A stretch of 17,970 bases of DNA, from the UHGV virus genome UHGV-0122840; one strand, 5' to 3'. Source of the DNA: a virus. Below are positions 15,127 to 17,970 of the stretch, piece by piece. The notes under the pieces were generated by a model, which was given only the letters and a program-made list of their open reading frames with translations, did no database searches and was not told the origin of the DNA. Numbering within the stretch: position 1 is the stretch's first letter; each line of letters starts with the position of its first letter. Both the position numbers and the translations under genes were made by a program.

Positions 15127-15775
15127 TGGCAGCAAATACCGAAATATTTGGGTAGTTGGCGATCTGCACGGATGCTACACGAACCTGATGAAAAAACTGG
15201 AGACGATAGGATTCGACACCAAAAAAGACCTGCTTATCTCGGTTGGCGATTTGGTCGATCGCGGTACAGAGAACGTCGAATGCCTGGAATTAATCACATT
15301 CCCCTGGTTCAGAGCTGTACGTGGAAACCATGAGCAAATGATGATTGATGGCTTATCAGAGCGCGGAAACGTCAATCACTGGATGCTTAATGGCGGTGGC
15401 TGGTTCTTTAATCTCGATTACGACAAAGAAATTCTGGCTAAAGCTCTTGCCCATAAAGCAGATGAACTTCCGTTAATCATCGAACTGGTGAGCAAAGATA
15501 AAAAATATGTCATCTGCCACGCCGATTATCCTTGTGACGAATACGAGTTTGGAAAGCCAGTTGATCATCAGCAGGTAATCTGGAACCGAGAACGAATCAG
15601 CAACTCACAAGACGGGATCGTGAAAGAAATTAAAGGCGCGGACACGTTCATCTTTGGTCATACGCCAGCAGTGAAACCGCTCAAATTTGCCAACCAGATG
15701 TATATCGATACCGGCGCAGTGTTCTGCGGAAAGCTCACATTGATTCAGGTACAGGGAGAAGGCGCGTGGGCATAA
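15103..15775 (+). CDS. ninI: NinI serine/threonine protein phosphatase (lambda PPase family), 224 aa
   Basis: Metallophosphatase motifs GDLHGCY, GDLVDRG, GNHE. Start at [12 protein letters not shown] with GGAG Shine-Dalgarno 7 nt upstream; the ORF-track start at 15029 lies inside ninH. Confidence 0.85.
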
Positions 15776-16284
15776 GAGAACTAAACCTCACCAAAGAACA
15801 GCATGAGTGGCTGAATGGCTGGCTTGAACTGTGGGGCGCATGGGTTTATTCAGGTCGTCTGGAAAAGCGCATGAGCAGCGTAATAGCGAAGTTCATGGAG
15901 AGCGTAGAGCCGGGAAGAGTTATGACAAGGCCAATGTGTAATGATGATGATGGAATGTTGATTTCTCAGGTCGTCGATTCCGTCATGTACATTGACAAGA
16001 AAGCCTTTGGCATCCTCCTCAGCTACTACGCTCATGGTTCATCTAAGCGAGCAATTGCATCCTACTATCACGCGACTGCAAAGCCACGCAAGATGTGTGG
16101 ACGTGGTGGCGAGGGATGGAGAAAACCTTCAATGGCAACCTGTAGAAACGAAATTGACGACATCCTGAAAGCGTCGTTATTTGTTTTGTACCAGCCAATG
16201 CAAAATGCTTTCAAAATGCGTAAACGTGTTGAGAAAGTTAAGCATGTTGCTGTTAAAAGCCTTGACATGCAATTATCTATTTAG
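15766..16284 (+). CDS. Late-gene antiterminator Q (172 aa; not lambda-Q type, possibly Q21/Q82-like)
   Basis: Position directly after ninI and immediately upstream of a promoter plus terminator pair. GTG start with GGGAGAAGG Shine-Dalgarno. Assignment is positional; the sequence is not lambda Q. Confidence 0.65.
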
Positions 16285-16478: not shown

Positions 16479-16991
16479 ATGAAAGAAATAAAATTAACGC
16501 CAGAAATGGTGCTTTCTGTTGTTGATTACAATCCATCATCAGGCGACTTTCACTGGAGATGGAGGCAGGGGAGAGAGAGGACCACTTTGACATGGAACTC
16601 TCGTTTTGCTTTCAAGAAATGCTCATCAATAAATTCTGATGGGTATTTAATGATTATGATTAATGGTAAAGCATGCCCTGCTCACAGACTGGCATGGTTG
16701 ATTGTTTATGGCACCATGCCCGATGGTTTTATTGATCACATCAACAGGGTAAGAACAGATAACCGGATATCAAATCTTCGTCTTGTCACTCATTCCGAAA
16801 ATATGCAAAACAGGAAAATTCAGAAGAATAATAAATCTGGATACCGTGGCGTGTCTTGGGATGCTAAGTACGGGAAATGGAGAGCAAGAATTAATGCGTC
16901 TGGAAAGTGTATTAACCTTGGATACCATGACACTGCCGAACTTGCCGCTGCGGCTTTTGAGGCAGCCAGAATGAAATATCATACCGTTTAA
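16479..16991 (+). CDS. HNH homing endonuclease with AP2-type domain (170 aa), diverged paralogue of the 11513-12124 gene
   Basis: Shares AHRLAW..VY..P..FIDH.N..R.DNRISNLRL.T..EN and GVSWD...G.W.......I.LGY.D..E.AA with the first HNH gene. AAGGT Shine-Dalgarno. Sits between tR' and the lysis genes. Confidence 0.8.
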   Translation: MKEIKLTPEMVLSVVDYNPSSGDFHWRWRQGRERTTLTWNSRFAFKKCSSINSDGYLMIMINGKACPAHRLAWLIVYGTMPDGFIDHINRVRTDNRISNLRLVTHSENMQNRKIQKNNKSGYRGVSWDAKYGKWRARINASGKCINLGYHDTAELAAAAFEAARMKYHTV

Positions 16992-17000
16992 AGATGTAAG

Positions 17001-17046
17001 CTGCCGTTAGTGACTCTTAAGTTGCAACGGTGGCTTTTTTATTTGC
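17001..17046 (+). terminator. Possible terminator after the second HNH gene (imperfect stem, T6 run)
   Basis: CTGCCGTT ... AACGGTGG stem with two wobble pairs and a long loop, followed by CTTTTTTATTT. Confidence 0.35.
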
Positions 17047-17366
17047 ACAACAGGTAAGAGCATTGAACCCGCAGACCTCGCGGAATTGGTGAAAGGTGCC
17101 GCGCAGTGCTCTTATCGTTGTGGTGAAGCTCAATGGCGAGCTAGCAGATAGGCGATAGTGAAAATACTAGTCATGTAGCTGACCGCCGCGCGTACTGCAA
17201 TCGGCAGCGCACCGATGGAAGCCGGTTCGATTCCGGTCGCCACAATCCAAACTGAGCCGTAGCCACTGGCTATCCTGAACTCATCAGTGATAGTTATGCT
17301 GCGGCCTTCTTTTTTCCCCTTCCCAATATAAGAACTACGCAATCCGTTACTGGCGGAGGCGTTGCT

Positions 17367-17582
17367 ATGAAATCAATGGACAAAATCTCAACTGGCATTG
17401 CCTACGGCACCTCCGCAGGCAGTGCTGGCTACTGGTTTTTACAGTGGCTTGATCAGGTCAGTCCGTCACAGTGGGCTGCGATTGGTGTACTGGGGAGTCT
17501 GGTTCTGGGCTTCCTGACTTATCTGACAAATCTGTACTTCAAAATCAGAGAAGACAAGCGTAAGGCTGCACGGGGAGAGTAA
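17367..17582 (+). CDS. S: Phage-21-type class II holin / pinholin S21 (71 aa) with dual-start motif MKSM
   Basis: Translation [71 protein letters not shown] matches S21 as recalled (two transmembrane domains, Met1 and Met4 starts). GGAGG Shine-Dalgarno. Confidence 0.9.
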
Positions 17583-17586
17583 TTCA

Positions 17587-17937
17587 ATGACTCAAAACTA
17601 TGAACTGATTGTGAAAGGGATCCGCAATTTTGAGAATAAAGTTACGGTAACTTTAGCGTTACGGGACAAAAAACGCTTTGACGGTGAAATTTTTGACCTG
17701 GACATCTCGCTGGACCGTGTTGAAGGTGCCGCGCTGGAGTTTTATGAGGCAGCAGCCAGAAGGAGCATCAGACAGGTCTTCCTGGATGTTGCTGCCGGGT
17801 TATGTGAAGGGGATGAGCAGTCGCCGGAAAAGCGCCCCGTAATTTTAGAGGCGCAGAATGTGTGGATAACCTACAAAGGAAAGCTACCAGGAATAATTAC
17901 TGGTTCTCTGAAGACTCCTCCGGAATCACAACATTAA
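17587..17937 (+). CDS. Hypothetical protein (116 aa) immediately downstream of the holin
   Basis: GGGGAGAG Shine-Dalgarno 7 nt before ATG and a 4-nt gap after the holin stop. No lysozyme, SAR or other recognisable motif. Confidence 0.6.
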   Translation: MTQNYELIVKGIRNFENKVTVTLALRDKKRFDGEIFDLDISLDRVEGAALEFYEAAARRSIRQVFLDVAAGLCEGDEQSPEKRPVILEAQNVWITYKGKLPGIITGSLKTPPESQH

Positions 17938-17970
17938 GTCACTGACCGGAACAGATAAACCTGTCCGTGG

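Follow-up and report, generated by a model that had tools for sequence, protein, structure and literature searches.

In phage 21, the endolysin gene R21 begins at the stop codon of the pinholin gene S21 with no ydfR in between, and the first-pass annotation of the locus described here was right, judging from the phage 21 annotation, to take R directly behind S as the arrangement of that phage. The MKSM dual start of the holin gene is annotated in phage 21 as giving both an antiholin (S21-71) and a holin (S21-68). In VT2-Sakai, which has a more distant holin, a 177-aa R follows four bases past S on a GGGGAGAG Shine-Dalgarno (SD) sequence, again with no ydfR. The order holin-ydfR-lysozyme, which is that of the locus described here, is also found in the Qin element of Escherichia coli K-12 (essQ-ydfR-rrrQ-rzpQ/rzoQ), in the Stx1 phage BP-4795 (ORF46–48), in BL21 and in several induced E. 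coli prophages. There is precedent for phages targeting the host RNase E, in the form of the modulators phiKZ Dip, T7 gp0.7 and T4 Srd.

The K-12 protein YdfR (b1555, P76160) has been connected to the same enzyme. Residues 1–72 of YdfR were recovered by a two-hybrid screen (Gopel et al. 2026, PMC13232886), YdfR in its full length also interacts with Rne1-597, and FLAG-tagged Rne1-598 co-elutes with Strep-YdfR from lysates, RapZ being the positive control in the YdfR–RNase E experiments (PMC13232886). Much nucleic acid that resisted DNase was present in the Strep-YdfR eluate, pointing to RNA binding; the co-purification was done without nuclease, and a contaminant could, as the authors point out, carry the RNA (PMC13232886). 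Overproduction of YdfR changed few transcripts and did not slow growth (PMC13232886). Beyond this work and the list from a CPRG screen (PMC3879167), no functional literature on DUF1327/YdfR was found.

The DNA analysed here, referred to as the window, is a stretch of 17,970 nucleotides from the virus genome UHGV-0122840, towards the end of which a 116-codon gene follows an S21-type holin gene.

Gene anatomy and family assignment

The holin gene upstream had earlier been proposed to encode an S21 pinholin, and this proved correct, as the product matches the corresponding Pfam family (Table 1), is 98.6% identical to phage 21 S and keeps the dual start. Its stop codon (TAA, 17580–17582) is followed by a gap of 4 nt (ttca) and then by the ATG of ydfR at 17587, from where the reading frame runs for 116 codons to a TAA at 17935–17937. 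The placement of a 116-aa gene 4 nt past the holin stop in the first-pass annotation was thus exact, and the SD that it described as strong has an anti-SD duplex energy equal to that of the VT2-Sakai R leader. The GGGGAGAG element is kept 5' of ydfR in 60 cassettes, in which the anti-SD energies of ydfR lie mostly between -8.5 and -9.5 kcal/mol, and the same element drives the endolysin in cassettes that lack ydfR.

Table 1. Coordinates of the holin-ydfR-endolysin features; positions refer to the window unless a locus is named
Feature	Position	Strand	Evidence
S21-type class II holin (pinholin), 71 aa	17367..17582	+	Pfam Phage_holin_2_1, 1.4e-35; MKSM dual start
SD GGGGAGAG of ydfR, inside the last holin codons	17572..17579	+	anti-SD duplex -8.5 kcal/mol
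ydfR-family gene (DUF1327), 116 aa, soluble acidic product	17587..17937	+	ORF; PF07041, 7.4e-43; phrog_406
Conserved N-terminal core, residues 1–75	17587..17811	+	AF2, BLASTP, dN/dS, conserved residues
C-terminal module B, residues 78–113, SPEKRPVILEAQNVWITYKGKLPGIITGSLKTPP	17818..17925	+	pLDDT <50; pooled pN/pS 0.30
First 33 nt of the 63-nt spacer ahead of the SAR-type endolysin	17938..17970	+	alignment with L001
SD-less endolysin leader	L001 4676–4700 (window ~17976–18000); L005 2871–2895; L003 5' of rrrQ		

The 116-aa protein is acidic (pI 5.5). The earlier observation that it carries neither a signal-anchor nor a lysozyme motif was upheld, since no membrane segment was found in it (best 19-residue Kyte-Doolittle mean 0.69) and a Pfam search returned DUF1327 as the sole match and no lysozyme domain. 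Two identities for the gene were discarded on these grounds. It is not an endolysin of the GH24, SAR type, as the protein has no lysozyme domain and the real endolysin is the next gene in the closest genome (L001, see below). Nor is it an antiholin or holin-like regulator of the kind represented by S21-71, lambda S107, P1 LydB and T4 RI, as it has no membrane or SAR segment and is not consistently present together with the holin. The same holds for the earlier suggestion of an antiholin-like factor, which did not stand up: the protein has no transmembrane segment, shows no homology to lysis regulators, and S21 encodes its own antiholin.

The protein matched the Pfam family PF07041 (DUF1327) with 145.1 bits (cut-off 25; E 7.4e-43) over model positions 1–92 of 93, and it also matched phrog_406, which is categorised under 'unknown function' and not under lysis. 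It is 97–99% identical to P0002 and WP_000193279.1, both named 'YdfR family protein', and in genomes 97–99% identical over this region PGAP annotates the gene pair as 'class II holin family protein' and 'YdfR family protein'. On the basis of these matches, the 116-aa gene is assigned to the YdfR/DUF1327 family of accessory genes of lambdoid E. coli phages. No NCBIfam model matched the protein, and neither a sequence search of the PDB nor a profile search returned a solved relative. Because of the DUF1327 score of 145 bits, the dN/dS of 0.26–0.27 and the module B pN/pS of 0.30, the ORF is a real gene and not a chance reading frame. A search for overlapping or antisense genes within ydfR yielded short ORFs only (35 and 54 aa), and a +1-frame peptide found in databases corresponds to frameshifted YdfR fragments; this possibility was rejected.

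Gene, family and position are thus already known, having been annotated since the K-12 and Stx-phage genomes. The label 'unknown gene' given in the first-pass annotation holds in so far as the gene has no established function, but not otherwise, as it belongs to a named and very common family and lies in its standard position. The novelty implied by the label is lost on two counts: the protein is homologous to a known lysis-cassette resident, and the gene is absent from the related working cassettes of phage 21 and VT2-Sakai. The discovery value of the locus is accordingly small, with a named family in its usual place and lysis that works without ydfR; what value is left lies in YdfR being an uncharacterised K-12 protein that is found in most E. 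coli genomes.

DNA related to ydfR, searched for with the gene only, was found in 4349 of 5426 complete E. coli genomes (~80%), individual genomes having as many as 10 copies. As a family, YdfR is very narrow: 319 clusters came from a search of 5.8 billion proteins and 65 matches from an exhaustive HMMER scan over 1.84 billion representatives, and in a scan of one genome per species YdfR was confined to Escherichia and Shigella plus two metagenome bins, which are taken to be contaminated. Databases contain numerous truncated, frameshifted and fused versions of YdfR. One apparent distant relative, P0160 (3128 aa, tandem repeats), in which six repeats match YdfR residues 7–58 (E 5.7e-9, 32% identity), was set aside, as its score is probably inflated by the repeats. 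Loci like that of P0175 were sought in viral contigs, and none were found.

Lysis-cassette context

As the first-pass annotation had pointed out, the window ends before the next gene: it stops 33 nt past the ydfR stop. The downstream region was therefore read from the closest genome, NZ_CP146681.1 (L001), which is 99.1% identical and carries, in order, Q, an HNH/AP2 gene, the holin, YdfR, a 63-nt spacer, a 177-aa lysozyme and an Rz-like lysis protein, so that extension by way of this genome placed both an endolysin and an Rz-like gene behind ydfR. The lysozyme gene is located at 4701–5234 of L001, and its start, 63 nt past the ydfR stop, maps to window position ~18001. The N-terminus of the lysozyme is positively charged, and the protein further contains an Ala/Gly-rich segment of weak hydrophobicity (YGLSAAVLALIAVGAPAP) and the motif EGNHTTAYRDGSGIWT, a make-up that identifies it as a predicted SAR endolysin, and it is 92% identical to VT2-Sakai R but only 34% to R21. 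Since this SAR-type lysozyme follows ydfR in L001, the pinholin/SAR-endolysin logic of the cassette is judged to be intact, with the endolysin one gene further downstream.

No promoter-like or terminator-like site was found between S and R (L001 3600–5300), and the 63-nt spacer contains a small imperfect hairpin (CGGAACAG/CTGTCCG) without a T-run. From its orientation and tight packing with the lysis genes, ydfR is read as being co-transcribed with them in the late operon. A classical moron was ruled out, as ydfR has no promoter or terminator of its own in this span and starts 4 nt past the holin stop.

The K-12 counterpart belongs to the same Pfam family, has a core 81% identical to that of the window protein and is organised alike, in that ydfR also lies 4 nt past a class II holin gene, ahead of a 177-aa lysozyme gene, with its SD inside the holin gene. 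However, K-12 YdfR has 103 aa and ends in an unrelated 28-aa tail, and the stop of its gene overlaps the rrrQ start, whereas the window protein ends in module B and its gene stops 63 nt before R. BP-4795 ORF47, which has homologues in Stx1a and Stx2c phages, resembles the window more closely in architecture, with the order S-ydfR-R, a core followed by module B (114 aa) and an SD-less R. Its identity to the window protein is nevertheless only 64% over the whole length and 56% within the core, and the BP-4795 cassette has ant between R and Rz.

Among loci from Escherichia and Shigella, ydfR was located between an S21-type holin gene, at a distance of 4 nt, and a 177-aa endolysin gene in 47 of 47 loci retrieved by the holin and in 8 of 8 retrieved by YdfR. 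The 80 IMG/VR loci (L007–L086), defined by a holin at least 90% identical to that of window 17367–17582, were divided, with ydfR present in 50 and absent from 28–30. Where ydfR was present and the endolysin visible, the latter was of the 177-aa RrrQ/933W type (47 of 47); where ydfR was absent, a 165-aa R21-type endolysin started from the holin stop (28 of 28). An obligate pairing of ydfR with the 177-aa endolysin is ruled out by VT2-Sakai, which has that endolysin without ydfR, and the association is for this reason read as linkage within one mosaic module. Among phage records, only 101 have a YdfR homologue, compared to 438 with the same holin type. As the gene is missing both from phage 21, despite a holin 98.6% identical, and from VT2-Sakai, despite an endolysin 92% identical, ydfR is dispensable for lysis. 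Pinholin, SAR endolysin and spanins function in its absence in phage 21 and in Stx2 phages, so that its product would stand outside the lysis machinery.

Conserved core and interchangeable tails

The core is predicted by AF2 (pLDDT ~67–86) to consist of three strands (residues 5–14, 18–27 and 33–43) and a long helix (50–76), and no relative of this fold was found. Residues Y5, E6, L7, G47, Y53, E54, A69 and L72 are invariant down to 27–39% identity, and over residues 1–74 the window core and K-12 YdfR share 60 of 74 residues (81% identical, 96% similar by BLASTP). The dN/dS of the window gene was 0.26 compared to K-12 and 0.27 compared to BP-4795 and, judged by these ratios and the pN/pS of module B, core and tail are both under purifying selection.

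Behind the core, alignments revealed at least 8 unrelated or nested tails of 0–193 aa. The tail of the window protein, module B, was modelled by AF2 with a pLDDT below 50; it is missing in K-12 YdfR and in 104-aa forms, and extended in 176- and 183-aa forms, which carry an added coiled-coil-like extension. A Pfam search of the long C-terminal tails gave no match in any of them. One protein of 112 aa (P0149) consists of a coiled-coil segment like the extension of the 176/183-aa forms followed by module B, and has no DUF1327 core. As module B occurs there without the core, the YdfR modules recombine independently.

Conversely, core-only DUF1327 proteins of 72–76 aa were found in three IMG/VR contigs (L097 3001–3219, L098 3001–3216 and L099 3001–3231), with scores of 52 and 36 bits compared to the Pfam cut-off of 25. 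In all three contigs, the gene is situated between a homologue of the lambda tail-assembly protein I and a J-like host-specificity gene, and neither a holin nor an endolysin was found nearby. A small opposite-strand ORF of ~100 aa adjoins the core-only gene in each of these contigs. In view of this location between I and J, the core is a moveable accessory gene of late operons, and the occurrence of core-only copies away from lysis genes argues against any mechanism that needs contact with holin or endolysin.

Of the roles proposed in the first-pass annotation, carriage of cargo in the lysis operon comes closest to this evidence, given the core-only homologues in the tail operon and the RNase E binding of the K-12 homologue, while nothing speaks directly for the proposed lysis regulator.

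Proposed function and alternative explanations

The explanation that we favour, with a probability of roughly 0.4, is that the YdfR core binds to the catalytic half of RNase E, to RNA or to both, and would in this way tune RNA decay late in infection. The gene would be transcribed and translated within the late lysis operon from the SD that lies within the last holin codons, giving a soluble cytoplasmic protein that would remain outside the lysis machinery. Its predicted beta-beta-beta-alpha core would sit on the N-terminal half of host RNase E, which is the catalytic one, or on RNA, or on both; the exchangeable tails at the C-terminus may modulate what YdfR binds, and the target would be late RNA decay rather than membrane or wall. 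RNase E binding is a property shown for K-12 YdfR only (PMC13232886), and moving it to the window protein seems reasonable. YdfR of the window is thus best described as an accessory protein expressed late, which probably binds RNase E or RNA and whose gene may affect endolysin translation in cis. To the existing RNase E lead, the present analysis adds the invariant core with swappable tails, the SD-less endolysin alongside ydfR and the core-only copies in tail operons.

The mode of action proposed for YdfR has a parallel in E. coli RapZ, a cytoplasmic adaptor that contacts the N-terminal half of Rne, co-purifies with RNA and presents GlmZ. RapZ, which shares no similarity in sequence or fold with YdfR, differs from it in forming a 284-aa tetramer and in having a defined RNA target. 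A more far-reaching and rather doubtful version of the favoured explanation is that YdfR proteins are phage-specific modular RNase E adaptors, in which the core docks and the swappable tails direct or deflect the cleavage of late RNA, and which together with the SD-less endolysin leader would determine the ratio of endolysin to holin and, through it, when lysis occurs. If true, such modular adaptors would represent a layer of post-transcriptional lysis control undescribed for pinholin/SAR systems.

The organisation of the cassette gives rise to a different explanation, namely that the main effect of ydfR is exerted in cis and the protein is secondary. In all 60 sampled cassettes that contain ydfR, R lacks an SD (anti-SD energies of +0.6 to +1.6 kcal/mol), its start codon following a conserved A/T-rich leader that ends in TGATAAATATCC. 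Where ydfR is absent, R uses an SD inside S, with anti-SD energies of -8.5 kcal/mol in VT2-Sakai and -7.1 kcal/mol in phage 21. The presence of ydfR therefore alters the translational context of the endolysin: as ydfR occupies the S-embedded SD, the endolysin is left on an A/T-rich, SD-less leader, and this displacement probably changes the amount of endolysin made. According to this explanation, the ydfR ORF would act as a translational spacer that takes the SAR endolysin off the S-embedded SD, so that R would be made via coupling, re-initiation or a low SD-independent rate, limiting premature wall damage by spontaneously released SAR endolysin. The contrast in SD usage between cassettes with and without ydfR speaks for such a spacer, as does the overlap of ydfR stop and rrrQ start in K-12, which takes the form ATGA. 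Furthermore, the Keio ydfR mutant is among the CPRG-positive (envelope-leaky) mutants listed in a supplement (Paradis-Bleau et al. 2014, PMC3879167), a phenotype that could reflect a polar effect on rrrQ, which encodes a SAR lysozyme. Coupling cannot be the general rule, however, since across the 60 cassettes the spacing between ydfR stop and R start varies from -83 to +452 nt. A mere spacer would moreover have no need of the purifying selection seen on core and tail, and the core-only homologues in tail operons have no endolysin gene in their vicinity. A role that is mainly in cis is on balance unlikely.

Set against docking on RNase E or RNA, a benefit to the lysogen, with ydfR as cargo parked in the late operon and serving, for example, stress adaptation, phage exclusion or envelope homeostasis, appears less plausible still. 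Such cargo would fit the copies kept in cryptic prophages (Qin, Rac-like elements), the presence of the gene in 80% of E. coli genomes, in as many as 10 copies each, and the variable C-terminal tails, which resemble arms-race diversification, and the K-12 cluster has been reported to be cold-induced (PMC13232886). On the other hand, K-12 RNA-seq was almost without ydfR reads (PMC13232886), and PADLOC returned no defence match for the window protein, K-12 YdfR or the 176-aa and 287-aa variants. Expression in the lysogen is also not what the gene arrangement predicts: ydfR should be silent there, because it lacks its own promoter and terminator and is located behind the Q-dependent late terminator.

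The fixed neighbourhood of ydfR, between holin and 177-aa endolysin in every locus of both sets described above, is what one would expect of a trans-acting regulator of lysis timing, a cytoplasmic factor similar to T4 RIII that would bind the basic C-terminal tail of the pinholin, or the endolysin, and delay or sharpen triggering. The acidic nature of YdfR, as opposed to the basic holin tail, is in line with such binding, and T4 RIII and other soluble lysis regulators are, like YdfR, small cytoplasmic proteins encoded together with lysis functions. The likeness ends there, as T4 RIII has no homology to YdfR, YdfR is dispensable and its homologues occur in tail operons as well. The neighbourhood can equally be explained by linkage within one mosaic module, the protein has no transmembrane segment, no homology to known lysis regulators and a PHROG classed as 'unknown function', and S21 already has its own antiholin by way of the dual start. 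Together with the absence of ydfR from phage 21 and Stx2 phages, in which its partners are near-identical, and with the distant homologues outside lysis cassettes, this makes a timing regulator improbable. Finally, the view of ydfR as a non-functional leftover ORF hitch-hiking between two selected genes, which could appeal to the numerous truncated, frameshifted and fused versions and to the dispensability of the gene, is strongly disfavoured by a dN/dS of ~0.3 across both modules, by the start, SD and frame kept in 60 of 60 cassettes and by core residues kept at 27–39% identity.

Region upstream of the lysis cassette

Immediately upstream of the holin gene, window 17223–17366 matches phage 21 at 90% identity over the segment between the 3' end of a tRNA-Thr gene and S21. 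A tRNA-like remnant with a GGTTCGATTCC T-arm was noted at window 17190–17248, in which ARAGORN detected no tRNA and Rfam gave a sub-threshold tmRNA match of 13 bits. As related phages have two to three intact tRNAs at this location, the tRNA block appears to have been replaced or deleted.

Further upstream, 49 nt of the window (16997–17045) are 98% identical to an element of the phage 21 late leader (L004 2177–2226), which in phage 21 is annotated as a sigma-dependent pause element and terminator just downstream of pR'. In the window, this element directly follows the HNH/AP2 gene, and the window Q is of a different type from Q21. The HNH/AP2 gene itself (16479–16991) encodes a 170-aa protein with HNH_3 and AP2 domains and is located between the Q antiterminator gene (15766–16284) and the lysis cassette; from its domain composition, this protein in the late-operon leader looks like a homing endonuclease.
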